A DNA stretch of 64,000 nucleotides from Maritimibacter sp. (GTDB lineage: Bacteria; Pseudomonadota; Alphaproteobacteria; Rhodobacterales; Rhodobacteraceae), in assembly GCA_964230745.1 (NCBI GenBank), contig CAXRHZ010000041.1, forward strand, positions 87,280 through 151,279, written 5' to 3'. Both the position numbers and the translations under genes were made by a program. The number at the start of each line of letters is the position of its first letter. The stretch's first letter is position 1. Below are positions 41,198 through 58,198 of the stretch, piece after piece. The notes beneath the pieces were generated by a model, which was given only the letters and a program-made list of their open reading frames with translations, was not told the origin of the DNA and did not search any database.

Positions 41198-41213
41198 TTA
41201 ACCCATGAGTTAG
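41198..41213. promoter_or_regulatory. imperfect 16-bp palindrome just upstream of the TPP enzyme gene
   Basis: TTAACCCATGAGTTAG; 12 of 16 positions self-complementary. Confidence 0.4.
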
Positions 41214-41217
41214 CAAA

Positions 41218-42855
41218 ATGACGGCGGGGATCATGGCCAAACTGCATTTCGCGCTCGCAGAAGCGCTTCGCGACGGCGGCGTCGCCACCCTGTTCGGTGT
41301 CGTTGGGGATGCGAATGCCTATTTCGTTGCGGCTTACGCGGGGTTCGACGGTGCGCGCTACGTGAGCGCCTGCAACGAGAACGGGGCCGTCCTGATGGCG
41401 CTGGGCCATGCGATGACGACCGGTGGGGTGGGGTTCTGCACGGTGACCCACGGTCCGGCGCTCACCAATTGCGTGACGGCATTGACCGAAGGGGTGAAGT
41501 CCCACACGCCCGTCGTGCTCCTGTGCGGGGACACGCCGGTGGCGGATCGCGAGAACCTTCAGAACACGGACCAGAAGGCCGTGGTCCTCGCCGCCGGCGC
41601 CGGATTCGAGCAGATGCGCAGCCCGGCAACGGCGCTCGACGACCTTGCGCGGGCGGTGCGGCGGGCCAAGGCCGAGCGGCGGCCGATCGCCGTCAACATG
41701 CCCGCGGAGTTCCAGTGGGAGGAGGTCGATGCGCGCCCGGTGAGCTGGGAGGTTCCGGCCCTGGGGCCGACAGAGGTCGCGGGGGATGCGTTGGACGAGG
41801 CGGTCGGGATCATTGCCGCGGCCCGGCGTCCCGTCGTGCTGGCCGGACGCGGTGCGATTGACGATGCGTCCCGCGCGGCCCTGATCCGGCTCGCGCGCCG
41901 GATCGAGGCGCCGCTCGCCACGACGATCCGCGCCAAGAACCTGTTTCACGGAGAGGATCATGTGCTGGGCGTCTGCGGCACGGTCTCGACCCCGCAGGCA
42001 GCCGAGGCCCTGATGAGCGCCGACTGCATCATCGCCTTTGGCGCCTCGCTCAATTTCCACACGACCGGAGAGGGCGGCTATGTCGAGGGCAAGCGGGTGA
42101 TCCAGGTGGCCGACCGTGCGGAAGACCTCGGCACCGGGGCGGTGGCCGACGTGGCGATCCACGGGACCCCGGCGGCGGTCGCCGATACCTTTGCCTACTG
42201 GCTCGACGAGGCCGAGATCTCAGCCTCCGGTTTTACCCGCGACCTGCCCGCGACCGGGCTGGACGTACCGCCGCCTGCAACGCCGACGCATCCGCGCGAG
42301 GGGGCGGTGGATTTCCTCACGACCCTCGCGCGGCTGAACGACATTCTGCCCCGGGACCGCGTGCTCGTCACCGACGCCGGTCGCTGGATGGTGCGCAGTT
42401 ACGGCCTTCTGACCGCACCGCATCCGCGCGATTTCGTTACCTCGGCGAGTTTCGGGTCCATTGGCCTTGGCCTCGCCACGGCCGTCGGAGCGGGAGTGGC
42501 GCATCCCGGCCGCACGACCGTTCTGTTCAACGGGGACGGGGGGTTCATGCTGGGCAACCTCGCCGAGTTCCATTCGGCGGTGCGGGCCGGCCTCGACCTC
42601 GTGATCGTCCTGTTCAATGACGGCAGCTACGGCGCCGAGCACATCCAGTTCCGAAACAAGCAGCTCGATCCCGCGATCACCCTTTTCGACTGGCCCGATT
42701 TCGTCACGGTTGCGCGGGCGCTGGGCGGGGACGGCATCGGAATACGCGGCGCGGCGGATCTTGAGGCGCTCGGCCCGGCGCTGGAGGCGCGCGACAGGAA
42801 CCGGCCGTTCCTGATCGACGTCCACCTCGATCCCGATTGCGTCGCCATGTGGTAA
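41218..42855 (+). CDS. thiamine-pyrophosphate-dependent enzyme (acetolactate synthase-like fold)
   Basis: FGVVGDAN, NENGA (catalytic Glu), THGPALTN, NGDGGFM...NDGSYG TPP motif; start may be 41233. Confidence 0.9.
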   Translation: MTAGIMAKLHFALAEALRDGGVATLFGVVGDANAYFVAAYAGFDGARYVSACNENGAVLMALGHAMTTGGVGFCTVTHGPALTNCVTALTEGVKSHTPVVLLCGDTPVADRENLQNTDQKAVVLAAGAGFEQMRSPATALDDLARAVRRAKAERRPIAVNMPAEFQWEEVDARPVSWEVPALGPTEVAGDALDEAVGIIAAARRPVVLAGRGAIDDASRAALIRLARRIEAPLATTIRAKNLFHGEDHVLGVCGTVSTPQAAEALMSADCIIAFGASLNFHTTGEGGYVEGKRVIQVADRAEDLGTGAVADVAIHGTPAAVADTFAYWLDEAEISASGFTRDLPATGLDVPPPATPTHPREGAVDFLTTLARLNDILPRDRVLVTDAGRWMVRSYGLLTAPHPRDFVTSASFGSIGLGLATAVGAGVAHPGRTTVLFNGDGGFMLGNLAEFHSAVRAGLDLVIVLFNDGSYGAEHIQFRNKQLDPAITLFDWPDFVTVARALGGDGIGIRGAADLEALGPALEARDRNRPFLIDVHLDPDCVAMW

Positions 42856-42858
42856 ACT

Positions 42859-42875
42859 GTCCCGTAATGTGAGAC
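42859..42875. promoter_or_regulatory. 17-bp operator-like motif, copy upstream of dctP
   Basis: GTCCCGTAATGTGAGAC; 14/17 identical to 52323-52339; related half-matches at 42891 and 43002. Confidence 0.55.
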
Positions 42876-43091
42876 GTTAGACTCGACCACGTCCCATATT
42901 CGGGTACGGGAAATCACCGTAAAATACCGATACTTTTCTGGAAATTCATGAAAAACGCAAAAAAATCACTTCACATCTCCGACTCTCGTGCGACTCGTAT
43001 TGTCCCACTAAGTAGGAGATGCTAGCGTTTCGATAGCGCGAGAACCGTTCGCGCGACACATTCAGGCCGGTGACGGCTCAGGGAGGAACAC

Positions 43092-44312
43092 ATGACATTC
43101 ACCACGAAATGGACAGGTCTGTCCGCCGCGGCGCTGGTCGCCGTGTCCGGCATGACTTTTGCCACCGCGGCCCAGGCGCAGGAATGGCTCGACAACCTCG
43201 AGCCGATGACGCTGAAGCTCGCCGATTTCTCCGGCAACCAGGATGCCAACTTCGGCAAGGCCATGGTCGCCTGGGAGGAATCGATCACCGAGTTCACGGA
43301 CGGCAAGATCACGTTCGAGAACTACTGGTCCTCGTCGCTTCTGGGCGCGCTCGACACGCTTTCCGGCGTGGGTGACGGGGTGGCCGACATCGGCCTCATC
43401 ATCCCGTCCTACATGCCGCAGGAACTGCCCGTCGGCTCGTGGCTCTTCGGTATGGGTGCTGCGCTGTCCGGCTCTACCGTGCATGACGTGGCCGCGGGCG
43501 GCGCGGCCGCGCTCGAAACCGTGCTGACCTTCGAGCCGCTGACCGAAGAATACGCCCGCCACAACGTGAAAGTGCTCCAGGCGACGGCGACCCCCGCCTA
43601 CAATCTGCTGTGCAACACGCCGATCTCGTCGCCCGAAGAAGCCGAGGGCAAGCGTGCCCGCGCCATCGGCGCGGTCTGGTCGGAGACGGTCGAAGCGCTT
43701 GGCATGACCCCGGTCTCCATCGCCTGGGGCGAGGCCTACGAAGGGCTTCAGCGGGGCGTGTTCGACTGCATGGTCATCAACCCGAACCAGTATGCCGACG
43801 GGCTCGTCCTCAAGGACGTGGCGCCGGAATTCGTGCCGGTGACCATGGCGCAGCTCCAGGCCTCCACCTGGGTCATCAACCTCGACGTCTGGGAAAGCTT
43901 CCCGGCGGAGCTGCAGGACTTCATCACCCAGGCCAACATCAAGGCGGCCTACGACATCTGGGAAGGTTACCTCGACATCGAGGCGAAGGCCGGTGAGCTG
44001 ATCGCGGCCGGGGAGGAGATCCACACGAACGACATCTCCTCGCTCGAACCCATCGCGCGTGAGCAGCGGGCGAACTTCGTCGCCGGTCTGGCCGATACCG
44101 CGCCCGACTCGGTCGAGGATCCGGCCGCCTTCATCGCCGACTACCAGGCGCGCATCGACTACTGGACCGATGCCCTGGAAGCAGAGGGATACGAGGTCGC
44201 CGAGCGCACACCGGAAGCCATTCTGGATGCCTTCGCGGGCCTGTCCGAGGTGGACCTGTCGAACTTCTACGAGAAGTTCAACTCCGAGTTCACCCCGGGC
44301 CTCATGAACTGA
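43092..44312 (+). CDS. dctP: TRAP transporter substrate-binding protein (DctP family, long type)
   Basis: Signal peptide, ITFENYWSSSL, GVADIG, EGKRARAIG (conserved Arg), EAYEGLQRGVFD. Confidence 0.88.
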   Translation: MTFTTKWTGLSAAALVAVSGMTFATAAQAQEWLDNLEPMTLKLADFSGNQDANFGKAMVAWEESITEFTDGKITFENYWSSSLLGALDTLSGVGDGVADIGLIIPSYMPQELPVGSWLFGMGAALSGSTVHDVAAGGAAALETVLTFEPLTEEYARHNVKVLQATATPAYNLLCNTPISSPEEAEGKRARAIGAVWSETVEALGMTPVSIAWGEAYEGLQRGVFDCMVINPNQYADGLVLKDVAPEFVPVTMAQLQASTWVINLDVWESFPAELQDFITQANIKAAYDIWEGYLDIEAKAGELIAAGEEIHTNDISSLEPIAREQRANFVAGLADTAPDSVEDPAAFIADYQARIDYWTDALEAEGYEVAERTPEAILDAFAGLSEVDLSNFYEKFNSEFTPGLMN

Positions 44313-44316
44313 AACC

Positions 44317-44351
44317 GGATGGTCCGCCCCGCATGACGGGGCGGACATTCC
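44317..44351 (+). other. GC-rich hairpin after dctP (mRNA stabilizer or attenuator)
   Basis: GTCCGCCCCG-CATGA-CGGGGCGGAC without a T tract, between dctP and dctQ. Confidence 0.55.
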
Positions 44352-44391
44352 AGGCTTGCCCGTTCGCGGGCACACGGGCGACACTCACCAC

Positions 44392-44961
44392 ATGACCGAC
44401 GTTTCCCTTCGTCCCTCAACGCCCCGGCGCCCAGAGCCGGGCATTCTGCGCATCGTGGATGCCGCAGCGCTGGCCCTTGCCGTTGTCGCCGGGTTCGCAC
44501 TCGTGCTGCTCGCCGTGAACGTGCTCGTCGACGTGATCGGGCGCGCGGGGTTCAACCAGCCTTTCACAGGCACGCTCGAGTACACGGAGAACTGGTGGAT
44601 GCCGACGCTGACGCTGCTCGCCTTCGCCTATACCGAGCGCCGGCAGGAGCATATCAAGGTGACGATCCTGCTGGACACGCTTCCGATCGCCATGCGCCGG
44701 GTCGTGGAGGGGGTTTTCGGGACCATTGCGACCGTGCTTCTCCTGGCGCTTGCCTGGCACGGGCTGAGCGAGGCGCTGGAAGCGGCGGAGTATCGTCAGA
44801 CCACGGCCTCCAGCCCGCCGGTGGCGATCTGGCCGTTCAAGTTCGCGGCGCCTCTGGGCGTGCTCGCGCTCGCCCTTCAGATGGCAGCGACGAGCTATCG
44901 CTACCTCGCAGGCCACCTGCCGCGGACCGGCGGCGACGATCATGAAGGCGAAGCCGTATGA
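44392..44961 (+). CDS. dctQ: TRAP small permease
   Basis: 4 TM segments, DVIGR..FNQP..G..E, HIKVTILLD. Confidence 0.9.
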   Translation: MTDVSLRPSTPRRPEPGILRIVDAAALALAVVAGFALVLLAVNVLVDVIGRAGFNQPFTGTLEYTENWWMPTLTLLAFAYTERRQEHIKVTILLDTLPIAMRRVVEGVFGTIATVLLLALAWHGLSEALEAAEYRQTTASSPPVAIWPFKFAAPLGVLALALQMAATSYRYLAGHLPRTGGDDHEGEAV

Positions 44962-46433
44962 CCAGCCCGACCGAAACCCTGCCGATGCGCGCGGTATCCC
45001 GCGTCGGGATCGCGATCTTCGTCATCGGGCTCGTGGTCGCCGCCGGGTCGCTCTGGGGCATGCTCGCGGCGGACCTGCCCAAGGAGATCACCGGGCTACT
45101 CATCGTCGTCCTGTCCATCGTGCTGCTGCTCATGGGCATACCCGTAGGGGTGGCCATGCTGGGGGCCGCGGTGGTGGGTCTCTATGCGCTGAGCGGGGGG
45201 CGGGTCGTGCGCTCGACCATGGAGAGCGTGGCTTTCGACGCCACCGCGTCATGGTCGCTGTCGGTGATCCCGATGTTCATCCTGATGGGCATGATCCTGT
45301 GGAAGTCGGGCCTCACCACCTCGGCCTTCTCGGCCGCGCGGGTCTGGCTGGGCTGGATGCCCGGCGGGCTCGCCGTCGCCACGAATTTCGCGGGCGCCGC
45401 GCTCGCGGCGAGTTCCGGGAGCACCATCGGCATCACTTATGCGCTGGGCCGCGTGTCGATCCCGGAAATGCTCAAATCCGGCTACAATCCCCAACTCGCC
45501 GTCGGTTCAGTGGCCGCCGCGGGGACATTGGGCCAGATCATCCCGCCTTCGCTCCTGCTCGTGGTCTATGCCGGTGCGGCCTCGCTCCCCGTGGGACAGC
45601 AGCTTCTCGCGGGCGTCGTGCCCGGCGTGATCCTGGCCGTGGCGTTTGGCGTCATGATCGTTGTTCATGCCAGCCTGCGCCCGGGTTTCGCGCCGCGCGC
45701 CGATATGTCCGACGTCACCTGGGCGATGCGGCTGCGGGCGCTGGTCGAGGGCATACCGATCGCAATCGTGATCCTGATCGTCATTGGCGGCCTGTTCGCG
45801 GGGATCTTCACGGCGACCGAGGCCGGGGTCTGCGGCATGATCGCGGCGCTCATCCTGGGCGTCCTCCACCAGCTTCGCCAACGCACGAGCCTTCGCGAAA
45901 TCGGCGCGATGCTGCGGGCCGCACTGATCGGCACGCTGACCGGCACCGCCTCGGTCTTTCTCCTGATCGTGGGCGTCGCCGTCCTCACCCGTGCCATGGC
46001 GCTGAGCCAGGTGCCCAACTTCATCGCCAGCGGGATCGCGGAGATGGGGCTCGGGCGGATCGAGCTGCTGTTCATCCTGATCGGCGCCTACCTCATCCTG
46101 GGGATGTTCATGGACACGCTCGCGATGATGCTCCTGACCATTCCTGTTCTGCTCGGACCGCTCGCCTCGGTCGGGGTCGATCCGTTATGGTTCGGCGTGT
46201 TCCTCGTGGTCATGGCTGAGGTCGGGTTGCTCACGCCGCCTTTGGGCATTCTCACATTCATCGTCCATCGCATCGCGTCGGACCCGGAGGCGAACCTCGG
46301 GCGGCCCATATCGCTCGGCACCGTGTTCCTGGGCGTGCTGCCCTTCGCCCTCACCGCCATTGCGGTCGTGGTGTTCCTCATCTTCGTGCCGGAGATCGCC
46401 ACATGGCTGCCGGGCCTCAGCACGGGTCGATGA
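44958..46433 (+). CDS. dctM: TRAP large permease
   Basis: IPMFILMG, GGLAVAT, ASSGS, GTLGQIIPPS, TATEAG, EVGLLTPPLG. Confidence 0.93.
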   Translation: MTSPTETLPMRAVSRVGIAIFVIGLVVAAGSLWGMLAADLPKEITGLLIVVLSIVLLLMGIPVGVAMLGAAVVGLYALSGGRVVRSTMESVAFDATASWSLSVIPMFILMGMILWKSGLTTSAFSAARVWLGWMPGGLAVATNFAGAALAASSGSTIGITYALGRVSIPEMLKSGYNPQLAVGSVAAAGTLGQIIPPSLLLVVYAGAASLPVGQQLLAGVVPGVILAVAFGVMIVVHASLRPGFAPRADMSDVTWAMRLRALVEGIPIAIVILIVIGGLFAGIFTATEAGVCGMIAALILGVLHQLRQRTSLREIGAMLRAALIGTLTGTASVFLLIVGVAVLTRAMALSQVPNFIASGIAEMGLGRIELLFILIGAYLILGMFMDTLAMMLLTIPVLLGPLASVGVDPLWFGVFLVVMAEVGLLTPPLGILTFIVHRIASDPEANLGRPISLGTVFLGVLPFALTAIAVVVFLIFVPEIATWLPGLSTGR

Positions 46434-46473
46434 CGGGTTGCGCCCGCGGCGCGTTCCGGGAAAGGAGGGGCGC

Positions 46474-47142
46474 ATGACGACACCGGAAACCGCCTCTCGC
46501 AAGGAACAGCGCGAAGCCTCGGATCGCAAGATGCTGCGCGCGGCCACTGCACTGGTCAGCAAGCGGGGCATCGCAGGGGCCAAGCTGTCGCAGATCGGGC
46601 TTGACGCGGGGTACAGCGCGAACCTTCCGGTGCAGCGCTTCGGGACCAAACTCGCCCTGCTGATCGCGGTGCTGGACGGGATCGAGGCGCGGTTCCTGCG
46701 CCACGTGGAGGCGCGTGTCGGCACGCGGCGCGGGGCCGAGGCGCTGGCCGAGCGCATCCGCCTCCAGCTCGAGGCCGTGCGCGACATGCCCGAGAGTGCC
46801 ATCGCGCTCTACCATCTCATCATCGAAAGCACCGGTTCGATGCCGGACCTCAGGCCAAGGGTCGCGAGGCTGCAAGAGGCCTACCACCGCAACCTGCGCA
46901 CCTATCTCGAGCAGGCTCAGGCAGCGGGCGAGCTTGCCCCTGGCATGGATATCGAACGCGCGGCGCGGGTGATTTCCGGGGCGATCGGCGGGATGTCGAT
47001 GCAGGCGATTGTGGAAGAGCGGACCCGGGCGCTGGGCGACGACGCCCCGGCGCTGGCCGAAATGCTTCTGGCCCCCGTCCTCGCGAAAGGGGTCAGTCCT
47101 GCGCGACCCGGGACTGCGTCGCCTCGATCTCCTCGCGGATGA
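46474..47142 (+). CDS. TetR family transcriptional regulator
   Basis: RKMLRAATALVSKRG...LSQIGLDAGYS..L....FGTK HTH; 3' end overlaps the convergent IclR gene by 50 bp. Confidence 0.85.
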   Translation: MTTPETASRKEQREASDRKMLRAATALVSKRGIAGAKLSQIGLDAGYSANLPVQRFGTKLALLIAVLDGIEARFLRHVEARVGTRRGAEALAERIRLQLEAVRDMPESAIALYHLIIESTGSMPDLRPRVARLQEAYHRNLRTYLEQAQAAGELAPGMDIERAARVISGAIGGMSMQAIVEERTRALGDDAPALAEMLLAPVLAKGVSPARPGTASPRSPRG

Positions 47143-47869
47143 TCGCCTTCCACATCGCGATGCGCTCCTCGTCCACCTCGTCCGCGTGGACGGCGATGGA
47201 AATGGCGAGGTCGGGTTCTTCCGCGAAGGCGCGAACGCCCATGCCGAGGCCATAGATCGACTTGTACGCGCGGGCCCGGCTTTCGGAGAACCCGGAGGCC
47301 CGCGTGGCCGCGACCGCCGCGCGCACGCTCTCGGCATCGAGGTTCTCGTATCCTGCGAGGTCGGGTGCGATGGTCTCGATCACCCTGTCGACGGTGGCAT
47401 CGGGCAGCCCCGCCAGCAGGGCCGTGGCGCCCGCGCCGACACCGAGGTAGCGCCGCTGCCCCACTTCCACCGGGATCACGCGGATCACGGCGCGCCCCTC
47501 GGCCTTGTGGACGCAGACCGCCTCGAAGGCGGACCGGCGCATGAGATAGGTCGTCACGTTGGACCGGGCCGCCACCCGGTCGACGCAGGCGGTCCAGGGC
47601 GCGAGCTGCAACACCTGGTCGCTCACGGCGAGGCCGAGCTCGTAGCTCAGCATGCCGACTTCGTACTTGCGCGTCGCTGGATTATAGGCGGCGAGCCCGG
47701 TGTCGGTCAGGCTCTTGAGGATACGGTGCGTGGTCGAGCGGGCAAGCCCGACGGAGTCGGAGATGCGGCGCAGGTTCATCGGGCCTTCGTCGGAGACATG
47801 GGCGATCTGCTTTAGGATCGCAGCCGCGCGCCGGATCGCCTGTGTGCCGTCCTGGTTTTCGTCTTTCAT
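47093..47869 (-). CDS. IclR family transcriptional regulator
   Basis: QAIRRAAAIL, GLARSTTHRIL..L...G, GAGATALLA, AISIA. Confidence 0.92.
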   Translation of the reverse strand: MKDENQDGTQAIRRAAAILKQIAHVSDEGPMNLRRISDSVGLARSTTHRILKSLTDTGLAAYNPATRKYEVGMLSYELGLAVSDQVLQLAPWTACVDRVAARSNVTTYLMRRSAFEAVCVHKAEGRAVIRVIPVEVGQRRYLGVGAGATALLAGLPDATVDRVIETIAPDLAGYENLDAESVRAAVAATRASGFSESRARAYKSIYGLGMGVRAFAEEPDLAISIAVHADEVDEERIAMWKAIIREEIEATQSRVAQD

Positions 47870-47897
47870 GCAAGCTCCCCGCCGGTGTCGCGGCACA

Positions 47898-49472
47898 TTA
47901 GCCGGTGTCCCCGGCCGATGCCACCAGCGCGGCGGCCCGCGCACGCAGGTCAGGCTTGCGCACCTTGCCCACAGCGTTCACGGGCAGGGCCTCGAGGCGT
48001 TCGAGCACTTCGGGAAACTTCTGTTTCGCCAGCCCCGCGGCGTCCAGGTGTCGGGTCATGGCCGGCATGTCGAACCCTTCGGAGGCGACGACGAAGGCGA
48101 CGACGATTTCGCCGCGTGCCGCGTCCGGCGCACCGACCACGGCGACATCCGATACATCAGGATGGGCGAGGAGGGCGTTCTCTATCTCGACCGGGCTTAT
48201 GTTCTCGCCCTTGCGGATGATGATGTCCTTCTTGCGTCCGGTCACCACGACGAAACGGTCGTCCACGATCCGCCCGAGATCGCCCATGCGGAAGAACCCG
48301 TCTTCGGTGAAGGCGCCGGCATCGTGCTGCGGGTCGAGGTAGCCGGGAAACATCTGCGGGCCGCGCAGGACGATCTCGCCGTCGTCGAGCCGGAGGTCGA
48401 GCGCCATCTCGCCATCGGTATCGGCATGCGCCTCTGCAGCGGCGCGGTCGCGGATGCCGGGGCAGGCGAGGGGGACTTCGGTGGAGCCGTAGGCGCGGGA
48501 GACAACCGTGGCCGGCCATGCCGCCAGGGCTTCGCGCACGAGTTCGGGCGGGACCGAGGCGCCGCCGCAGATGAACCGGCGCAGCGTGGGCAGGTCGCTC
48601 CCGGCGCGCGCGGCAGAGGCCAGCAGCCCCGACAGGAACGGCGTGGCGCCGGCCATGAAGGTCGCGCCTTCGTCGTCGATCCGGGCCACCGCCCGGTCTG
48701 GGTCCCAGCCATCCTCCAGCACGGTGCGGCAGCCGGTGATCCAGGGAAACTCGAACGCATAGATCGAGCCGCCGATATGGCCGATGGGGGAGGGAACGAA
48801 GAGCACGTCCGCGTCTGCGAGCCCCCAGAAGCCCGCCGTGCCCCTCACGACCGCGTCCATGCTGTCATGGGTGTGGATCACGCCCTTGGGGGTTCCCGTG
48901 CTGCCGGAGGTGAAGATGATCATTTTCGCGTCGCGGCTGTCGGGAAGACGGGGCGTGGCTGCGGCGCCCGATGTCAGCGCCTCGAAGGTGAGAGGGCCGT
49001 TGCCGCGCACCGTCACGACATGGTCTGGCGGTGTGTCGAGCGAGGCGACGAGGCCCGGGTAGTCGACCTTGCCCGCCGGCGGGATGAAAATCGCTTCGAC
49101 CCCGCAGGCGGGCAGGATCGCCGAGAGCTCGGCCTTGCGATAGATCGGGAGGAGCGGGACGATCCGGTAGCCTGTCAGCGCGGCGGCGAGGTTGAGGACG
49201 GTCGCCTCCCACCAGTTCGGGAGCTGAAAGGCGATGGCGGCGCCGGGCGTGAGACCGAGCCGGTCGAGGCCGCCCGCGAGCCGGAGCGCCATGTCGACCA
49301 TATCGCCGCGGGTGAGACGCGTGTCGCCCTGTCTCAGAATTTCGACGTCCGGGGCCTGGGTGCGAAGGTCCAGCGCGATCTCGCCCAACGTCGGGCTGCG
49401 CGGGGCCCGGTGCCGACCGGCCGCGTCAAGGTCGCGCATCCGGGCCGCGAGCCGGTCGACCGCGCCGGTCAT
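47898..49472 (-). CDS. acyl-CoA ligase (cyclohexanecarboxylate-CoA ligase/FadK-like AMP-binding enzyme)
   Basis: FTSGSTGTPKGVIHTH, YGSTE, FRMGDLG, GRKKDIIIRKGENI, AVGKVRK. Confidence 0.88.
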   Translation of the reverse strand: MTGAVDRLAARMRDLDAAGRHRAPRSPTLGEIALDLRTQAPDVEILRQGDTRLTRGDMVDMALRLAGGLDRLGLTPGAAIAFQLPNWWEATVLNLAAALTGYRIVPLLPIYRKAELSAILPACGVEAIFIPPAGKVDYPGLVASLDTPPDHVVTVRGNGPLTFEALTSGAAATPRLPDSRDAKMIIFTSGSTGTPKGVIHTHDSMDAVVRGTAGFWGLADADVLFVPSPIGHIGGSIYAFEFPWITGCRTVLEDGWDPDRAVARIDDEGATFMAGATPFLSGLLASAARAGSDLPTLRRFICGGASVPPELVREALAAWPATVVSRAYGSTEVPLACPGIRDRAAAEAHADTDGEMALDLRLDDGEIVLRGPQMFPGYLDPQHDAGAFTEDGFFRMGDLGRIVDDRFVVVTGRKKDIIIRKGENISPVEIENALLAHPDVSDVAVVGAPDAARGEIVVAFVVASEGFDMPAMTRHLDAAGLAKQKFPEVLERLEALPVNAVGKVRKPDLRARAAALVASAGDTG

Positions 49473-50254: not shown

Positions 50255-51168
50255 CGTTCCCCCCACCTCGCGTCAGCGTAGTCCAGTTGGGCCTGCGCCG
50301 CACCGCCCATTTCGGCCCGAAGCGCCCGGGCGCGGTAGGTCCAGCGGTGCAAGGGGTGTTCGAGGGTGAGACCCATGGCGCCCATGAACTGATGCAGGTC
50401 GTAGCCGATCCGGGTCGCATGGCCCTGCAGGTATCCGAGCGCCTGGGCTGCGTCGGCAGGGGCGCGGGTTGCCGCCGCCCTGAGCGTCATGAGCTCGCCT
50501 GCCTCGATACGCACCGCGTCTTCCGCGAGCCGGTGCTGCACACCCTGAAAGCTGCCCAGCGGTCGCCCGAACTGCTCGCGCTCGCGCAGGTATTGCAGGA
50601 CCGAAGCGAGCCCTCCGGCCAGCACGCCGCCCAACTCGGCGGCGAGCGCCACCGACCATAGTGTGCGGATCGACACGGGGTCGGTGTCGATGTCCTGCCA
50701 GTCAGGCGACGCGGTCAGGACGCCCATCGGGTAGGCGTAGAGGCTGTCCACGCGCCGGGTTACTCCCTCCACGCCGGCCCACCGCAGCCCGCCGTCGGTG
50801 ATCGACAGGAGCGCACGGGCCTGCGGCAGGAAGCGCACCGCGCCCGGCGCGTCGTCGACCACCACCGCGAGCGGGCGGGGGAGGTCGATGCCGAGGAACG
50901 GGCGCAGGAGCGAGGTTGCGGCGCATTCCAGCACCACGGGTGTCTTCGCCACCGCGTGAACCATCGCGGCCGCGGCGACCGGTCCAAGCTCCGCCTCGCG
51001 GGCCGCGTCGAAGAAGCCGGCCTCGGCCAGCCTGTCGTCGAGCGCGTGGCCATAGTCGTGGCGCCCCCAGCCCTCGACCGTGCGAAAGCCCGCCTCGGCC
51101 TCGTCCGACAGCATCTGTTCGAGCACGGTGGCGAAGGTCGCCTGATCTTCGTTGAACGCCAGCCGCAT
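50251..51168 (-). CDS. acyl-CoA dehydrogenase, short (putative non-catalytic) subunit
   Basis: 305 aa; YLREREQFGRPLGSFQGVQHRLA, HQFMGAMGLTLEHPLH. Confidence 0.85.
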   Translation of the reverse strand: MRLAFNEDQATFATVLEQMLSDEAEAGFRTVEGWGRHDYGHALDDRLAEAGFFDAAREAELGPVAAAAMVHAVAKTPVVLECAATSLLRPFLGIDLPRPLAVVVDDAPGAVRFLPQARALLSITDGGLRWAGVEGVTRRVDSLYAYPMGVLTASPDWQDIDTDPVSIRTLWSVALAAELGGVLAGGLASVLQYLREREQFGRPLGSFQGVQHRLAEDAVRIEAGELMTLRAAATRAPADAAQALGYLQGHATRIGYDLHQFMGAMGLTLEHPLHRWTYRARALRAEMGGAAQAQLDYADARWGER

Positions 51169-51170
51169 GG

Positions 51171-52313
51171 TCAGGCCCCCCTGGGAAGGTTGAGGTGACG
51201 GCGCGCCACGAGGTTGAGCTGGATCTCGGCGGCGCCGGCGGCGATGCCCGTGACGATGGCGCGTTCGTGGTGGGCCTGGAACGCGGGATGTTCGTCACCC
51301 GAATAGCAGTCGGGCAGGAAGTCCATTCCGAAATCCGTCACCTTGTGATCCGCCTCCACCACCGCCACGCGGGCGAGGTTCGCGGCGGTTCCCGGCGGCA
51401 CGCCGCGGGCCCGTTCGTCCACGACCCGGTAGACCAGCATCCGTGCTGCATCGCAGGCCATCGCGGCTTCGGCTGCGCGTCCGCGCACGAGCGCGTTGCC
51501 GAAACCGCCCCGCGCTTTCAGCTCCGCGACCATCGCGTCGAGCTCACGCGCCGACATCTCGTAGCGGGGGATGCCGACGCGTTCGTTCGAGAGGGCGTAG
51601 GAGATGATGGTCCAGCCTTCGCCTTCTTCCCCCAGCATGGCCGAGGCCGGGACGCGCACGTCGGTGAAGAACACCTCGTGGATGTCGCCATGTCCGATCA
51701 GGCTCGGGATCGCGCGCACCTCGATCCCCGGCGTGTCCATCGGGAGGAGGAAGATCGCGATGCCGCCGCGCCCCTCGCCGGTGCGGGCCAGCAGGAAACA
51801 GGTGTCGGCGAGGCCGGCGTAGGAGGTCCAGATCTTCTGCCCGTTGATGACGTAGTCGTCGCCGTCGCGCAACGCGCGGGTGCGCAGGCTCGCGAGGTCG
51901 GATCCCGCGCCGGGTTCCGAGAAGCCCTGGCACCAGATCGCGCGGCCTTCGGCCATGGGGGGGAGATAGCGGCGTTTCTGTTCGTCCGAGCCGTAGCGCA
52001 TCAGGACCGGGCCGATCCAGTTGACGTTCATGTATTGCCCGCCGCGCGGCTCGCCCGCCGCCCACATCTCTTCGCCCAGGATGAAATGCTCCCACGTTGG
52101 CCGGTCCGCGCCGCCCCAGTCCGCGGGCCAGTGCGGCACGAGAAGCCCCGCTTCGGCGAGTTTCGGGCAGAAATCGAGGCTGAACTCGGTCTGTTCGCGT
52201 GACCCGGGCCCGTGGCGTGCGATACTCTGCCAGTCGCCGGGCAATTCGCGCGCGAGGAAGTCGCGCACCTTGGCGCGGAAAGCGTCGTTTTCCTCCGACC
52301 ACGCGAAGTCCAT
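51171..52313 (-). CDS. acyl-CoA dehydrogenase, long (putative catalytic) subunit
   Basis: WCQGFSEPGAGSDLASL, NGQKIWTS, LSNERV, IAAGAAEIQLN. Confidence 0.92.
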   Translation of the reverse strand: MDFAWSEENDAFRAKVRDFLARELPGDWQSIARHGPGSREQTEFSLDFCPKLAEAGLLVPHWPADWGGADRPTWEHFILGEEMWAAGEPRGGQYMNVNWIGPVLMRYGSDEQKRRYLPPMAEGRAIWCQGFSEPGAGSDLASLRTRALRDGDDYVINGQKIWTSYAGLADTCFLLARTGEGRGGIAIFLLPMDTPGIEVRAIPSLIGHGDIHEVFFTDVRVPASAMLGEEGEGWTIISYALSNERVGIPRYEMSARELDAMVAELKARGGFGNALVRGRAAEAAMACDAARMLVYRVVDERARGVPPGTAANLARVAVVEADHKVTDFGMDFLPDCYSGDEHPAFQAHHERAIVTGIAAGAAEIQLNLVARRHLNLPRGA

Positions 52314-52322
52314 GTGGTAACT

Positions 52323-52339
52323 CTCCCATTATGTGAGAC
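52323..52339. promoter_or_regulatory. 17-bp operator-like motif, copy in the divergent ACAD promoter region
   Basis: CTCCCATTATGTGAGAC overlapping the RBS of the minus-strand ACAD; weaker copy at 52480-52496. Confidence 0.55.
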
Positions 52340-52365
52340 ATATGTGCCTCAAGCGGATGCCATCG

Positions 52366-52433
52366 AACATGCCGAGGCGTTCTGCCACTGTCAACAGCTC
52401 GCAGCTTGACCTTATGTTTCTAGTGAGTATAGC
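52366..52433. promoter_or_regulatory. back-to-back sigma70-like promoters
   Basis: Minus strand TTGACA (52394-52389) N17 CATGTT; plus strand TTGACC (52406-52411) N16 TATAGC. Confidence 0.45.
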
Positions 52434-52516
52434 CTGCCCCTGCCGTGTCGGGATGCATTCCGGCGCATGGTGCTCGACCATATCACTATATGGAACGAAT
52501 GGGCGACGGGAGGAAT

Positions 52517-53647
52517 ATGGAACTCACGCCGACAACGGAAGACGCGGCTTTCCGCGCTGCTGCGCGCGACTGGCTCATGGCCAATCGCCCAGAGGGACCC
52601 GCGCCGCGCGAAGGGCGGGCGGCGCGCGACTACGCTACCGACTGGCTTGCACGGTGCCACGAGGGTGGCTGGTCCGGGCTCGCATGGCCCGCGGACTACG
52701 GCGGGCAGGGGCTTTCGCCCGCGCGGCTCATCACTTGGTACGAGGAATACGTGCGCGCCCGGGCGCCATCGGCGCTGGACTGCACCTTCGTCGCGCTGAA
52801 CCACGCAGGGCCGACAGTAATCGCGCGCGGGACCGAGGAGCAGAAGGCCTTCCACCTGCCGCGAATCCTCGAGGGCCGGTCGATCTGGTGCCAGGGGTTT
52901 TCCGAACCGGGGGCGGGATCGGACCTCGCCAGCCTGCGCACGACGGGGCGGGTCGAGGGCAACGAACTGGTGGTCAACGGTCAGAAGATCTGGTCGAGCT
53001 ATGCCGATGTCGCAGATTACCAGGAGCTTCTGATCCGCACCGAGCCGGGGTCGTCGCGCCACAAGGGCCTGTCCTGGGTGATCTGCGACATGAGCCTGCC
53101 CGGGATCACCGTCCGCCCGATCGCGAACATGGCGGGCGTCACGCATTTCGCCGAAGTGTTCTATGACGACGTGCGTATCCCGCTCTCGGACGTGGTGGGC
53201 GATCTGCACGACGGCTGGTCCGTGGCGATGACCACGCTCGCCTTCGAGCGACGCACTGCCGCGCTCGCCCTGCAACTGGAGTTGTCGGTGAAGGTCGAAG
53301 ACCTGATCGCGCTGGCCGAGGCACCCGCCGGCTCCGCGACCGCCGAACGCCTCGCCGATCTCAGGGCCGAGGCCGCGGCGATCCGCGCGATGACATGGCG
53401 CACAGCGTTACGCGAACCGGCGACACCCTTCGACGGGTCGCTCGTCCGGCTGAGTTTCGCGGAACTGGCGCAGCGGGTGCACCGGGCCACGATGGACGTG
53501 TTGGGCCCTGCCGGGCTGACCGACAGCGACTGGTCGCACGCCTATCTCGAAAGCTATTCGGAAACCATCGCCGGGGGGACCGCCGAAATCCAGCGCAACA
53601 TCATCGCCGAGCGGTTCCTGGGCCTGCCGAGGGAGCCGCGCACATGA
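52517..53647 (+). CDS. acyl-CoA dehydrogenase, long (putative catalytic) subunit
   Basis: WCQGFSEPGAGSDLASL, NGQKIWSS, LAFERR, IAGGTAEIQRNIIAERFLGLPREP; RBS GGGAGG. Confidence 0.92.
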   Translation: MELTPTTEDAAFRAAARDWLMANRPEGPAPREGRAARDYATDWLARCHEGGWSGLAWPADYGGQGLSPARLITWYEEYVRARAPSALDCTFVALNHAGPTVIARGTEEQKAFHLPRILEGRSIWCQGFSEPGAGSDLASLRTTGRVEGNELVVNGQKIWSSYADVADYQELLIRTEPGSSRHKGLSWVICDMSLPGITVRPIANMAGVTHFAEVFYDDVRIPLSDVVGDLHDGWSVAMTTLAFERRTAALALQLELSVKVEDLIALAEAPAGSATAERLADLRAEAAAIRAMTWRTALREPATPFDGSLVRLSFAELAQRVHRATMDVLGPAGLTDSDWSHAYLESYSETIAGGTAEIQRNIIAERFLGLPREPRT

Positions 53648-54555
53648 GTTATGACCTGACGCCGGGCGAAGACCTGCGCCAGATCCTCGACGCCGCCGAG
53701 GCGATGCTGGCGACGCATTATCCCGTGGCGCGTCTGCGGGAGGGGGCAGGGGACGACCTTGCCCCGCTCGAAGAGTTCGGGGCCTTCGCGCTCGCCCTGC
53801 CGGAGGCGGACGGGGGCGCGGGGTTCACCCTCGTGGAAGAGGCGCAGTTGCATGTCGCGCTGGGCCGGCACCTCGTCAGTCCCCGCGCCCTTGCCACCGC
53901 GCTCGCCCGGCGGATCGACGGGCAGGCGACGGCCTGCGCCGGGGTCGTGGACGGCGCGGACTGGCTCGCTCTCGGTCCGGACGGGGCGGAGACGATCCTC
54001 GTGCGGACCAAAGACGGGCTCGTTCTGTCGGCCCTGGGTCAGGCCAAGCAGGTCGAGTCGCTGGGCCACGGCCTGCCACTCGCCCGTGTCGCGCCCGGTG
54101 CAGACAACCGGCGGGCGGACGAGACGATGCTGGGCGTCGCGCGACTGCTTACTTCGGCGCAGCTTCTGGGGGTTGCGATGGGCGCCGCGGACCTCGCCGT
54201 GGACTACGCGAAGACGCGGGAGCAGTTCGGGCGGCCCATCGGCAGTTTCCAGGCGATCAAGCATCATGCCGCGGACATGGCGATGGGGGTCGAACAGGTC
54301 TCGGCGCTGATCGACATGGCCGCCATCGCCCTGCGCGACGGGCACGACGATGCGCGGTTCCAGCTCGCGGCGCTGGCGCGGCTCGCCCCGCGCGTGGCGC
54401 TGGCCAACGCGCGCACGGGCATCCAGATCCACGGCGGCATCGGCTTCTCCGCCGAGGCCGACGCGCAGCTCTATCTCAAGCAGGCGCACCTCCTGCGCCA
54501 GTTCCTCGGAGCGGACGACCTGATGGAGGCCGCCGCGCCGCTCACGCCCTACTGA
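53644..54555 (+). CDS. acyl-CoA dehydrogenase, short (putative non-catalytic) subunit
   Basis: 303 aa; YAKTREQFGRPIGSFQAIKH, QIHGGIGFS.E; ATGA overlap with the upstream ACAD. Confidence 0.85.
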   Translation: MSYDLTPGEDLRQILDAAEAMLATHYPVARLREGAGDDLAPLEEFGAFALALPEADGGAGFTLVEEAQLHVALGRHLVSPRALATALARRIDGQATACAGVVDGADWLALGPDGAETILVRTKDGLVLSALGQAKQVESLGHGLPLARVAPGADNRRADETMLGVARLLTSAQLLGVAMGAADLAVDYAKTREQFGRPIGSFQAIKHHAADMAMGVEQVSALIDMAAIALRDGHDDARFQLAALARLAPRVALANARTGIQIHGGIGFSAEADAQLYLKQAHLLRQFLGADDLMEAAAPLTPY

Positions 54556-54566
54556 AAGGACAGATC

Positions 54567-55370
54567 ATGCGAACCGCCCTCATCACCGGCGCGTCGAGCG
54601 GTATCGGCCTCGCCACCGCGCGCAAGTTCCTGAGCGAAGGCGTGGCGGTTGTGGGCGTCGCCCGCAGCGCAGACAAGCTCGCCGCCGCGGTCGAGAGCTG
54701 CGCCGATCTGCCGGGCAGGATGGTGCCCTGCGCGCTCGACATCACGGCGGACGATGGGCCCGCGCGGGCGGTGAAGGCGGCGCTCGACGAATTCGGCCGG
54801 CTCGATCACCTCGTCAACAACGCCGGGATCGGAAGCCCGGAGCCGGTCCACAGCACGGACGACGAGACGCTCGACCGTTTCCTCGACATCATGCTGCGCG
54901 CACCCTTCCGGCTTGCGCGCGAGGCGCTCGCGGCGTTCGGTGAGATCGCGACCATCGTGAACGTCTCCTCCACATACGCGATCGTGGGGGGGCTGCGCGG
55001 CGGGGCCTACTCGGCGGCCAAGGCCGGGCTGAACGGGCTCACGCTCCACATGGCGGCGCAATACGGTTCCTCCGGCGTCCGGTCGAACGCGGTCGCGCCG
55101 GGCGTAATCCCGACACCCATGACGGAGCACCGACTAGAGGTCGAAGCGTTCCGGCGCATGAACCACGACATGACGCCCGCTGCCCGCTGGGGCACGGTCG
55201 AGGACGTGGCCGAGGCGATCTGGTTCCTGTCCTCGCCCGCTTCGGGCTGGATCAACGGTCAGGTCCTTGCCGTCGATGGCGGCTGGACCTCGACCAAGTT
55301 CCTGACCGAGGCGGCCTTGTCGGCGGAGCGCGTCCTGCGCCCGGTGGACTGGAGCCATTCCGGGCGCTGA
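54567..55370 (+). CDS. short-chain dehydrogenase/reductase
   Basis: TGASSGIG, NNAG, NVSS, YSAAK, APGVI.T. Confidence 0.93.
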   Translation: MRTALITGASSGIGLATARKFLSEGVAVVGVARSADKLAAAVESCADLPGRMVPCALDITADDGPARAVKAALDEFGRLDHLVNNAGIGSPEPVHSTDDETLDRFLDIMLRAPFRLAREALAAFGEIATIVNVSSTYAIVGGLRGGAYSAAKAGLNGLTLHMAAQYGSSGVRSNAVAPGVIPTPMTEHRLEVEAFRRMNHDMTPAARWGTVEDVAEAIWFLSSPASGWINGQVLAVDGGWTSTKFLTEAALSAERVLRPVDWSHSGR

Positions 55371-55379
55371 GATTACGCG

Positions 55380-57392
55380 TCAGCGCTTGTCTGCCAGCCG
55401 GTTCGCCGCGAACTCCGCGAACCAGTCGAGGGCTGCGGGATTGCGAGTCGCATCCTTCGAGGCGACCTTTTCAGGCGCTTCACCGAGGAGCATGCGGCGC
55501 ACCGGCACCTCCATCTTCTTGCCCGTAAGGGTCGTGGGGATTTCCGGGACCGCGACGATCACGTCCGGCACGTGGCGCGGCGAGCGTTCGCTGCGCAGGC
55601 GGCGCACGATTTCCGCCTCGGTGTCCGGGGTGAAGGATGTGCCCGGCGCCATCTGGACGAAAAGCGGCATGTAGTAGCCTCCGCCTTCCTCCTCGATGCA
55701 GACGATCAGGCTGTCTGCGATCTCCTCGAACCCTTCCACGGTGCGGTAGATCTCGGCCGACCCGATGCGCACGCCGAAGCGGTTGAGCGTCGCGTCGGAG
55801 CGCCCCAGCACGTAGGAGCCGCCGCGCGCGTTGAACCGCACCCGGTCGCCGTGGCGCCAGATGCCCGGATACATGTCGAAATAGCTGTCGTGGTAGCGGC
55901 TGAAATCCGGGTCGCCCCAGAGAAAGAGCGGCATGGACGGCATCGGCTGCCGCATCACGAGTTCGCCCACCTCGCCGGTCGGGGCGGGTTTGCCGCTCTC
56001 GTCCAAGGCGGTGGCATCGCAGCCGAGCGCGGGGGCCTGTATCTCGCCCGCATGGGCGGGGAGGAGCGGGGATCCGGCGAGGATGCCCGAGCAGATTTCC
56101 GTGCCGCCAGATTGGGATGTGGCGTAGATGTCCGCTTTGATCGCGTCATGGACCCAGGCGAGAATCTCGGGCGTGACGGGGGAGCCGGTGAGGAGGATCG
56201 TCTCCAGCGGGGCGATGTCGAATTCTTCGCCGGGCCGGATGCCCTGGCCGCGCACCATCTGCATGAAGGTGGGTGAAACGCCGAAGGTGGTCACGCCGGT
56301 CTCTGCCATGAGCCGCCAGAGCGCACGGGCGTCCGGATATGTCGGGTGGCCGTCGTAGAGCGTCACGCATCCGTTCAGCATCGGGCCCATCATCAGCGTG
56401 TTCCAGACCATCCACCCGGTCGTGGAATAGCAGAACTGCACCGCGCCCTCGTGCATGTCGAGGTGGAAGGCACCGGACTTCAGGTGCTCCAGCACGATCC
56501 CGTGGTGCCCGTGGACGATGGGCTTGGGGAGCCCCGTGGTTCCGGAGGAGAACAGCGTCCAAAGCGGGTGGTCCGAGGGGACGCGGATGTATTCGAACGC
56601 CTCGCGGGGCACGTCGGGCCCGTCGAGGAGGCTCTCCCATGCCAGCGTCTTGCCGGGAAATGCCGGGGACCCCGCGTTGGGCAGGTAGTCGAGCAGGACC
56701 AGCGTTTCGGCGCTGGGCAGATGGTCGAAGATGCGCTCGAGTTCGCTCGTGCGGTCGTGGTCCTTGCCGCCGTAGCGGTAGCCGTTCACCGCGAAGACCA
56801 GCTTGGGTTCGATCTGGCCGAACCGGTCGATCACCGTCTGCGCGCCGAACTCGGGCGCGGCGGAGGCCCAGGTCGCCCCGATCGCGGTGGTCGCGAGCAT
56901 GGCGACGACGGTTTCGGGGATATTGGGCATGTAGGCCACGATCCGGTCGCCGGGGACGATGCCCATCTCGCGCAGGCGTGTCGCCAGGCGACGCACTGCG
57001 CCCGCGATATCGGCCCAGCTCAGCCAGGCCACGTCGGGGCGCGTTTCGGACATGTGCGCGATCATCGGTCGGGCCGGGTCGCCCGTCGCCTCGTGGCGCA
57101 GGACGTGTTCGGCGTAGTTGAGCCGGGTGCCGGTGAACCAACGGGTATGCGGCATCGGGTCGTCGGTCATCACCGCGTCCATCTCGCCGTCGTGGATGAT
57201 GTCGAAATAGTCCCAGACCGCGCGCCAGAAGCCCGGCACATCCTCGACCGACCAGCGCCAAAGGTCAAAGTAGCCTTCGAATTCCTTGCCGCGCTCGGTT
57301 GCGAGCCAGTTCAGGAACCGGGTGGTCTCGACGCGGGCCCGGCGCTCGTCGTTGGCGCGCCAGAGTTCCTGGCCTTCTGTCACTTCGGTCAT
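55380..57392 (-). CDS. acetoacetate--CoA ligase
   Basis: LWRWSVED...FW, LNYAEH.LR, FSSGTTGLPKPIVH.H.G, WMVWN, SGGTEI, WRHGD, GRSDATLNRFGVRIG, GKKMEVPV. Confidence 0.92.
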   Translation of the reverse strand: MTEVTEGQELWRANDERRARVETTRFLNWLATERGKEFEGYFDLWRWSVEDVPGFWRAVWDYFDIIHDGEMDAVMTDDPMPHTRWFTGTRLNYAEHVLRHEATGDPARPMIAHMSETRPDVAWLSWADIAGAVRRLATRLREMGIVPGDRIVAYMPNIPETVVAMLATTAIGATWASAAPEFGAQTVIDRFGQIEPKLVFAVNGYRYGGKDHDRTSELERIFDHLPSAETLVLLDYLPNAGSPAFPGKTLAWESLLDGPDVPREAFEYIRVPSDHPLWTLFSSGTTGLPKPIVHGHHGIVLEHLKSGAFHLDMHEGAVQFCYSTTGWMVWNTLMMGPMLNGCVTLYDGHPTYPDARALWRLMAETGVTTFGVSPTFMQMVRGQGIRPGEEFDIAPLETILLTGSPVTPEILAWVHDAIKADIYATSQSGGTEICSGILAGSPLLPAHAGEIQAPALGCDATALDESGKPAPTGEVGELVMRQPMPSMPLFLWGDPDFSRYHDSYFDMYPGIWRHGDRVRFNARGGSYVLGRSDATLNRFGVRIGSAEIYRTVEGFEEIADSLIVCIEEEGGGYYMPLFVQMAPGTSFTPDTEAEIVRRLRSERSPRHVPDVIVAVPEIPTTLTGKKMEVPVRRMLLGEAPEKVASKDATRNPAALDWFAEFAANRLADKR

Positions 57393-57610
57393 GCGGGGCC
57401 TTTCCGTTGGTATGAGTTGTGCGGGAGGGCGCGGCTGGCCCGGTGTGCTGGTGTGCACGGCGTCTGGTCCAAAGTTGCCTCCCGTCTTGCGCGATCCTCC
57501 GACGCGCCGGGCGAGTATGGCGCGGGGACCGGGTGGCCGCCAGCCCCCGCGTCGCGTCGCGGTTGCCGGCCTGACGGCTTCGCGGCAGGATGAACGCGAT
57601 GGGAGAGGAC

Positions 57611-58102: not shown

Positions 58103-58198
58103 CGGATGCCCGCCGGATTGGTTTCCTGACCCGGATCCGGCCGGGAAACGCGCGGCGGGACACCGGCCCGCGAGAGGCCGCTCAACTGGGAGGAAATC

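Follow-up and report, generated by a model that had tools for sequence, protein, structure and literature searches.

We analysed a 64-kb stretch of the genome of Maritimibacter sp. (64,000 nucleotides, hereafter the window), in which a group of genes starting near position 41167 codes for a thiamine diphosphate (TPP)-dependent enzyme, a tripartite ATP-independent periplasmic (TRAP) transporter, two regulators and a set of enzymes acting on coenzyme A (CoA) thioesters. These genes make up a conserved block of 14.2 kb (41167-55370). We give an even chance to the reading that the block is inherited as a unit and encodes a modified form of beta-oxidation, controlled by IclR, for a carboxylate that is bulky and possibly ring-bearing or branched. 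Genes were called by third-position G+C, and the called genes were then scanned against Pfam and NCBIfam. A first-pass annotation of the window had listed these genes, and all of them were recovered where it had placed them. The features of the locus, including acyl-CoA dehydrogenases (ACADs) and a short-chain dehydrogenase/reductase (SDR), are listed below.

41167-41217, plus strand: left edge of the conserved block and TPP promoter; conserved in 8 loci, further upstream unrelated
41218-42855, plus strand: TPP-dependent enzyme, 545 amino acids (aa); all three TPP Pfam domains
42859-43030, plus strand: promoter/operator region of the TRAP genes; conserved in 8 loci
43092-44312, plus strand: DctP, 406 aa; Pfam DctP
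44356-44961, plus strand: DctQ; Pfam DctQ, likely start at the ATG at 44392
44958-46433, plus strand: DctM; Pfam DctM, 269 bits
46474-47142, plus strand: TetR-family regulator; NCBIfam TetR-type matches, TetR_C domains in Logan gene calls
47093-47869, minus strand: IclR-family regulator, last gene of the minus-strand operon; Pfam HTH_IclR and IclR_C
47898-49472, minus strand: AMP-forming acyl-CoA ligase, 524 aa; Pfam AMP-binding
49469-50254, minus strand: EchA15-type crotonase; Pfam ECH_1, 164 bits
50251-51168, minus strand: ACAD beta1, 305 aa; C-terminal ACAD domain only (Pfam)
51171-52313, minus strand: ACAD alpha1, 380 aa; three ACAD Pfam domains
52314-52516, between the divergent operons: control region; elements conserved in 10 loci of several genera
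52517-53647, plus strand: ACAD alpha2, 376 aa from a conserved Met (the open reading frame, ORF, opens at 52445); three ACAD Pfam domains
53644-54555, plus strand: ACAD beta2, 303 aa; C-terminal ACAD domain only
54567-55370, plus strand: classical SDR, right edge of the block; Pfam adh_short
55380-57458, minus strand: acetoacetate-CoA ligase, outside the block; NCBIfam, 827 bits against a cut-off of 639

The limits of the block were set by DNA similarity to six Maritimibacter-type genomes. This similarity begins at 41167-41290 and ends at 55309-55370, both edges are sharp, and the flanks are unrelated in every genome compared. The block begins about 50 bp 5' of the start codon of the TPP gene and ends with the stop codon of the SDR gene. 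The island had been thought to extend to 57392, and this needs correction, as the shared block stops about 2 kb short of that point. G+C content is ~67% over the whole window and uniform, with no shift at the island. As for signs of a mobile island, no integrase and no adjacent tRNA gene were found (the only tRNA gene of the window lies at 31259), and the longest terminal repeat at the block edges is only 9 nt, which is not meaningful. Genes overlap by 4 bp at their start and stop codons inside both operons, for example at the ligase start and the crotonase stop codon, and these coordinates indicate translational coupling within both operons.

To place the block among other genomes, we collected 34 species-representative genomes with relatives of the window's acyl-CoA ligase and mapped every window protein onto them. 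The closest relative is in Maritimibacter harenae (81%), and the remainder are from Rhodobacterales and Hyphomicrobiales. Seven genes form a core, with SDR, ACAD beta2 and ACAD alpha2 on one side and ACAD alpha1, ACAD beta1, crotonase and ligase in the divergent direction, usually followed by IclR. This core is complete in 29 of the 34 related loci, in both orders, and an IclR orthologue lies inside or adjoining it in most loci. One locus (L014) has only ACAD alpha1, ACAD beta1 and the ligase; together with two loci that lack the crotonase (L033 and L037, see below), it indicates that the core is not strictly indivisible. Thirteen loci and a Terrarubrum plasmid carry a TPP orthologue (49-83% identity), at variable positions next to DctP, SDR or ACAD alpha1, or after IclR. 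DctPQM orthologues occur in 15 loci (DctP 69-93%, DctM 73-91% identity), with DctQ syntenic with DctP and DctM, and their position is also rearranged. In several Hyphomicrobiales and on the Terrarubrum plasmid, a Liv-type ATP-binding cassette (ABC) system takes the place of the TRAP transporter, between crotonase and IclR; carriers of the Liv-type binding protein include Aquamicrobium and Mesorhizobium. The linkage outlasts rearrangement, and two different uptake systems alternate at one position, which speaks for a single process that involves transporter, TPP enzyme and core. TetR is restricted to the Maritimibacter-type loci and L011, L013 and L036; a TetR gene also adjoins NMO-TPP in Terrarubrum.

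Several accessory genes accompany the core in other genomes. An NMO-family flavoenzyme gene and a second crotonase gene form a pair in about eight loci (including L009, L010, L012, L019, L025, L027 and L042), and the pair is absent from the 64-kb window. In this second crotonase, Glu occupies the first catalytic site and Asp-Thr-His the second. In L008, L011, L013 and L017 (for example at 10274-12421 of L013), a gene between ligase and IclR encodes a 715-aa ADP-forming acyl-CoA synthetase (CoA_binding_2, Succ_CoA_lig and ATP-grasp_5 domains), which could provide a second activation step or an ATP-yielding release of a product acid. The Terrarubrum plasmid has the full core with TPP, two NMO-family genes, MaoC and a second crotonase. 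ACAD alpha1 orthologues of 51-75% identity are found on plasmids of several genera. Other arrangements include a Variovorax cluster of SDR, alpha, beta, family III CoA-transferase and PaaG-like crotonase genes with a binding protein of the tripartite tricarboxylate transporter (TTT) type, and alpha/beta pairs in other contexts in Sphingobium and Novosphingobium. In Rhodococcus opacus and Streptomyces, a ligase gene is divergent from an alpha-beta-beta'-crotonase-alpha' series, a layout that presumably resembles the M. tuberculosis fadD3/fadE30-33 genes; ACAD alpha1 alone is clearly orthologous in these actinobacterial loci (51-52%), and the strict core was not found there.

The four ACAD genes are arranged as two pairs, as the first-pass annotation had noted. 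Each pair has one full-length subunit and one subunit of ~305 aa that lacks the whole middle domain (51171-52313 with 50251-51168, and 52517-53647 with 53644-54555), and the genes of a pair are adjacent or overlap by 4 bp. In isovaleryl-CoA-dehydrogenase-type enzymes, a Glu residue serves as the catalytic base. A four-way alignment and the orthologues place such an invariant Glu in an N/F-E-R motif at E244 of alpha1 and E268 of alpha2, and both beta subunits lack it. The motifs CQGFSEPGAGSDL and NGQKIW are invariant in the alpha subunits only, and the C-terminal motif REQFGRP(L/I)GSFQ is present in the beta subunits and absent from the alphas; beta1 keeps REQFGRPLGSFQ. Conservation of alpha2 starts at M25 of its ORF. 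The closest solved structures of alpha1 are the steroid-type alpha2beta2 ACADs Tcur3483 and 4x28 (A chain), and the PDB matches of beta2 include Tcur3481 and the D chain of 4x28. From this anatomy, both pairs look like alpha2beta2 heteromeric enzymes. To our knowledge, steroid degradation and PimCD are the main settings in which heteromeric alpha2beta2 ACADs have been described. The best NCBIfam model of both alphas is PimC_large (204 bits for alpha1 and 187 bits for alpha2, cut-off 624), the PimD model gives 39 and 69 bits on the beta subunits (cut-off 653), and the best model of beta2 is IpdE2 (107 bits, cut-off 450). The cyclohexanecarboxylate dehydrogenase model TIGR03207 gives 104 bits on alpha1 (cut-off 575).

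The crotonase is atypical in its active site, as had been proposed. In an alignment with E. coli PaaF and PaaG, the catalytic E109 and E129 of PaaF correspond to T123 and H143 of the window crotonase, which are invariant in 22 orthologues, as is the segment GDPHVxIGLVAGDGG; T123, H143 and D152 are the key residues in ORF numbering. With both catalytic glutamates replaced, the protein has the crotonase fold and is predicted not to be a standard enoyl-CoA hydratase. The best structures for the orthologue profile are 3rrv and mycobacterial EchA15, and the His and Asp are common to all of them. The Asp-x-His at the second catalytic-Glu position and the loop Asp are shared with EchA15 of M. tuberculosis and M. 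marinum and with 3rrv, at moderate identity, and this match defines a subfamily, not an activity. The loop Asp is one alignment column off the PaaG loop Asp (D144 in E. coli numbering), which we take to be the catalytic base of that isomerase. A retro-Claisen type was also considered. The 6-oxocamphor hydrolase and the Anabaena beta-diketone hydrolase give 125-133 bits with the orthologue profile, below many ordinary hydratases, and this type remains a lead only. The His-to-Asp spacing of nine residues presumably matches that of the camphor enzyme. BadI and MenB models are not among the best 25 NCBIfam matches. The 120 relatives listed from a large protein database have generic names throughout, and EchA15 and 3rrv, the nearest, carry no specific functional name. 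Metagenomic relatives of the crotonase number in the thousands.

The TPP enzyme, with a best NCBIfam score of 198 bits against a cut-off of 539 and PDB relatives that are all about equally distant, belongs to an unassigned subfamily of the acetolactate-synthase/decarboxylase superfamily and has no equivalog. On a Loktanella salsilacus plasmid (L045, 1-11620), an orthologue (47%) follows a TRAP system and lies beside hmgA, fahA, maiA and an FAD-oxidoreductase/DUF2783 pair. That TRAP system was considered as an orthologue of the window's and ruled out. Orthologues in Novosphingobium and Rhodococcus are among oxygenase and hydrolase genes. The Loktanella context points to aromatic 2-oxo or 2-hydroxy acids as possible substrates of the TPP subfamily.

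The best NCBIfam model of the ligase is cyclohexanecarboxylate-CoA ligase (TIGR03208, AliA-type) at 283 bits against a cut-off of 792, and the FadD3 family gives 211 bits against 657. Among solved structures, the ligase is about as similar to aryl-acid adenylating enzymes as to fatty-acid ligases. The SDR has the residues TGxxxGIG, S134, Y148 and K152, invariant in 24 orthologues, and an equally invariant R33 after strand beta2. An Arg at this position is the usual sign of NADP(H) preference, and the SDR is probably NADP(H)-dependent. Solved-structure searches with the ACADs, the crotonase, the TPP enzyme, the ligase, the TRAP binding protein and the alternative ABC binding protein gave only relatives that were distant or that had no ligand-specific name.

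DctPQM is a predicted TRAP transporter, to judge from its three neighbouring components, its exported binding protein and a conserved Arg. DctP is of a long, 406-aa form with an N-terminal signal sequence visible in the translation. The carboxylate-binding Arg claimed earlier can be located at R190 (in GKRARAIG), which is invariant in 13 orthologues and 6 long paralogues and which we take to be equivalent to the Arg of SiaP. The nearest solved DctP structures are distant (E = 5e-18), and we believe them to include indole-acid binders.

Regulatory elements were derived from cross-genome alignment. A palindrome of the type GTCCCA-N5-TGGGAC, here called operator A, is found ahead of three operons, that of the TRAP genes and the two ACAD operons. 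Before the TRAP genes, a copy (GTCCCGTAATGTGAGAC, 42859-42875) follows the TPP stop codon, a second A-like site lies at 42891-42907, and an invariant 31-bp block (TTGTCCCACTAAGTAGGAGATGCTAGCGTTT, 43000-43030) is found in 8 loci. In the whole window, the 16-mer TCCCRTWATGTGAGAC is limited to two positions, 42860 and 52324. In the divergent region, operator A sites at 52323-52339 and 52478-52496 are each downstream of promoter boxes, with back-to-back -35 boxes (TGTCAA at 52389-52394, minus strand; TTGACC at 52407-52412, plus strand) and -10-like boxes (52366-52371, minus strand; TATAGC at 52429-52434, plus strand). These elements are conserved in 10 loci, and the surrounding sequence is not. 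Half-sites of operator A are enriched in the intergenic DNA of the island (4 observed against 0.58 expected, Poisson p = 0.003). Operator A is retained in loci with IclR and without TetR (L008 and L017), and it was therefore assigned to IclR, which probably represses through this predicted operator before the TRAP and both ACAD operons. The TPP promoter has a -35-like TTGAAA (41176-41181) and a different palindrome, operator B (TAACCCATGAGTTA, 41199-41212). It ends 6 nt before the ATG, and the window contains a single mismatch-free copy of it, against 0.25 expected at up to two mismatches. We tentatively place the TPP promoter under the control of TetR through this predicted operator. A -10-like box of the TPP promoter lies within the palindrome, about 6 nt before the ATG, and no obvious ribosome-binding site is seen (41176-41220); the TPP mRNA may have no leader or a very short one. 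Scans for consensus promoters and terminators did not rise above chance.

Contigs of a marine metatranscriptome cover TPP, DctP/DctQ, ACAD alpha1 and the divergent region. The ligase is covered at bin level, and the upstream glycosyltransferase gene also has contigs. The acetoacetate-CoA ligase, GFA and TAXI-TRAP genes have none in the same metatranscriptome. One contig joins 44638 to 54421, skipping 9782 bases, with a shorter side of only 21 nt, and is most likely an assembly chimera. In a sample search, carriers were found only in marine and seawater metagenomes, with no enrichment pointing to a substrate.

The functions that would complete an ordinary pathway were looked for in the whole window. 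Probes for thiolase, PaaH-type 3-hydroxyacyl-CoA dehydrogenase (HADH), family III CoA-transferase, MaoC and NMO had no tblastn match in the 64 kb. The Pfam-scanned genes contain no CoA-transferase domain (a family I CoA-transferase probe was not used), and the scans of the other genes gave housekeeping families only. The reported lack of thiolase, CoA-transferase, oxygenase and a usual HADH is in line with these results, and beyond the window a thiolase is present in only 3 of the 34 loci. No island protein reaches an equivalog cut-off in NCBIfam, where only the acetoacetate-CoA ligase passes its own, and six accessory proteins from other genomes are also far below theirs. Neither database names nor literature searches gave a characterised pathway that matches the cluster, as the first-pass annotation had also concluded; the relatives have generic names, and there are partial analogies only.

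The steroid C/D-ring module of actinobacteria (methylhexahydroindanedione propionate, HIP; KstR2 regulon) is one of these analogies. It also has adjacent genes for full-length and degenerate ACADs, and it has in common with the block a layout of ligase, two ACAD pairs, crotonase and SDR, as judged from the gene order of the M. tuberculosis module. The genes that accompany the core in other genomes (NMO family, MaoC, an extra crotonase and an SDR) come from families used for steroid C/D rings. The window differs in having no equivalog of FadD3 (211 of 657 bits) or IpdE2 (107 of 450 bits). The hallmark IpdAB-type hydrolase and thiolase of the steroid module were not found here, nor was a ring-opening oxygenase; uptake is by a TRAP system, and the hosts are marine Rhodobacterales and Hyphomicrobiales. 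The cyclohexanecarboxylate pathway (aliA, aliB, badK, badH and badI) follows the same logic, with ligase, ACAD, a crotonase-family enzyme and SDR acting on a ring acid and with hydrolytic ring opening by a crotonase. Its models score low on the window proteins (AliA 283 of 792 bits, AliB 104 of 575 bits). It uses two crotonases, the hydratase BadK and the hydrolase BadI, against the single one here, which is not of the MenB/BadI type, and the window has heteromeric ACADs and a TPP enzyme.

PimCD of Rhodopseudomonas palustris, an alphaproteobacterium, is a two-subunit ACAD whose hidden Markov model is the best for both window alphas. The differences from PimCD and the pimFABCDE genes are scores of about a third of the cut-off, betas without a middle domain, the lack of PimF and PimB, and a non-canonical crotonase. 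In Variovorax paradoxus TBEA6, the 3,3'-thiodipropionate cluster (VPARA_05480-05550) combines a pair of ACAD homologues with several genes of the crotonase family and one for a family III CoA-transferase; it also encodes IlvX, an acetolactate-synthase-like TPP protein that is induced and whose deletion gave no phenotype (PMC6370202). We liken it to the island by composition, and its sulfur-specific enzymes, Mdo and the AcdA desulfinase, have no counterpart in the window.

In the pathway that we propose, the TRAP transporter would import the carboxylate, as the Liv-type ABC system would in other genomes, and the AMP-forming ligase would convert it to its CoA thioester. The two alpha2beta2 ACADs would then add double bonds, in a sequence of two desaturations or each as the opening step of a separate round. 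The crotonase, with His and Asp for the two Glu, likely performs a step other than ordinary hydration, for which we favour double-bond isomerisation, or hydration coupled to C-C hydrolysis. The SDR would interconvert a hydroxyl and a keto group. The TPP enzyme, a frequent and perhaps semi-independent accessory, would attack beside a carbonyl, its target being either the substrate as a 2-oxo acid or a C-C bond further along the route. Thiolysis, if required, would be performed by enzymes encoded elsewhere. An alicyclic substrate is a reasonable guess, based on enzyme families and a layout that parallel the steroid C/D-ring module and on the best model of the ligase.

A self-contained island had been proposed, extending to 57392, in which C-C bonds are cleaved hydrolytically or by the TPP enzyme and the released acetoacetate is salvaged by the adjacent ligase. 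The acetoacetate-CoA ligase is a confident assignment, its gene is 9 bp from that of the SDR, and the window has no thiolase. This gene, however, is convergent with the SDR gene, lies outside the shared block and is absent from all 34 related loci. Neither operator A nor operator B is near it, and it has no transcript contigs where the island genes have them. It appears to be a chance neighbour in this genome only, and we regard acetoacetate release with linked salvage as very unlikely. The idea that unrelated operons lie together by chance, or that the genes are a biosynthetic set, seems more improbable still. In its favour, the TPP gene is often missing and is preceded by a separate operator, and the functional assignments are all generic. 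Against it, the order of the seven genes is kept in both orders of Alphaproteobacteria, the genes stay linked despite rearrangement, three operons have an operator in common, high-affinity uptake systems are exchanged at the same position, and no carrier-protein, synthase or export genes are present. The more limited claim of a coherent CoA-dependent catabolic unit is supported by the core, its persistent TPP and transporter linkage and the operator before three operons.

Two other catabolic routes have to be weighed. Medium-chain dicarboxylic acids (pimelate to sebacate) could be degraded by beta-oxidation like that of PimCD and pimFABCDE, as the PimC_large scores of both alphas, the 715-aa synthetase that is with the core in four loci and a transporter of the DctP family would suggest, and PimCD-type pairs are needed for C8-C12 dicarboxylates in beta-proteobacteria according to fitness data (PMC12543098). 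Yet those scores are a third of the cut-off of 624. The betas, at ~305 aa, are shorter than the 378-position PimD model and reach just 39-69 bits on it (cut-off 653). The block is linked neither to a hydratase/dehydrogenase fusion (PimF) nor to a thiolase (PimB), and a straight chain would not require a non-hydratase crotonase or a TPP enzyme. We judge this route improbable. Side-chain shortening of an arylalkanoic acid (phenylpropanoid type), feeding an aromatic ring cleavage encoded elsewhere, is also unlikely, if slightly less so. It would agree with the TPP orthologues of Loktanella, Novosphingobium and Rhodococcus, which adjoin genes of the homogentisate pathway or for Rieske oxygenases, and with alpha1/beta1 relatives among ring-hydroxylating oxygenase and phenylacetate-CoA-ligase-type genes in Sphingobium and Novosphingobium. 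The presumed indole-acid binders among the structural relatives of DctP and the aryl-acid likeness of the ligase point the same way. Against this, the 29 core loci have no ring-cleavage or ring-hydroxylating genes at a conserved position, the crotonase does not belong to the hydratase-lyase type, and the similarities are at the family level only.

The modified beta-oxidation module for a bulky carboxylate is itself opposed by several observations. No enzyme reaches an equivalog cut-off, and the activities are assigned from family membership only. PimC as the best model of both alphas, together with the 715-aa synthetase in four loci, which we believe to resemble the pimelate-activating enzyme PauA, fits a dicarboxylate. 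A crotonase orthologue is absent from two otherwise complete core loci, L033 (7411-10001) and L037 (8965-10001), and given these, the crotonase may be dispensable or encoded elsewhere. The TPP gene is missing from more than half of the loci and has an operator different from that of the core, so the TPP enzyme may serve a side reaction. Its orthologues also occur without the core, in aromatic-catabolism neighbourhoods. Finally, the metatranscriptome contigs are weak evidence, being unstranded and possibly including DNA.

Left of the island (39115-41033) are a glycosyltransferase gene near the TIGR04283 arsenosugar-type family (163 bits, cut-off 182) and a BhcA-like class-V aminotransferase gene (260 bits against 650), and both are absent from the related loci. 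To the right (57590-62889) are a GFA-family gene, a TAXI-type TRAP system (NMT1_3 binding protein, DUF1850 and a fused DctM) and a class-V aminotransferase gene, none of them linked to the island in other genomes. The acetoacetate-CoA ligase, upstream aminotransferase, GFA and TAXI-TRAP genes have no counterpart in any of the 34 related loci. The remaining window is housekeeping, with a Clp-type ATPase, F1 ATP-synthase subunits, phosphoribosyl pyrophosphate synthetase, a CobQ-like amidotransferase, elongation factor P and cell-wall enzymes. Well-supported coding regions at 5744-6907, 13840-14616 and 33718-34662 had no Pfam match at E <= 1e-8. Antisense ORFs over real genes, all on the minus strand (7660-8556, 27052-27903, 53554-54489 and 39825-41138), are shadow ORFs typical of high-G+C DNA and not genes; three have high third-position G+C, and two were scanned and had no family matches.

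A more far-reaching proposal is a new thiolase- and oxygenase-independent route, in which a CoA-activated, ring-bearing or branched acid that blocks beta-oxidation is desaturated by non-steroid alpha2beta2 ACADs and cleaved by the EchA15-type His/Asp crotonase, the TPP enzyme (which would be of a new subfamily) or both. We consider this doubtful. If true, it would give a first function to EchA15-type crotonases, including a Mycobacterium tuberculosis protein, and would define a substrate class widely used by marine Rhodobacterales and soil Hyphomicrobiales. The module, with two predicted alpha2beta2 ACAD pairs at its centre, is shared by 29 or more species-level genomes, from both marine and soil Alphaproteobacteria. 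The predicted regulon, two binding-protein families for what would be one ligand and the availability of cultured carriers, such as Maritimibacter alkaliphilus HTCC2654 (locus L007), make the question of the substrate directly testable. Identification of the substrate would assign the EchA15-type crotonases, the truncated ACAD betas, the 545-aa TPP group and the long-form TRAP binding protein, and would add a carbon source to models of marine heterotrophy.

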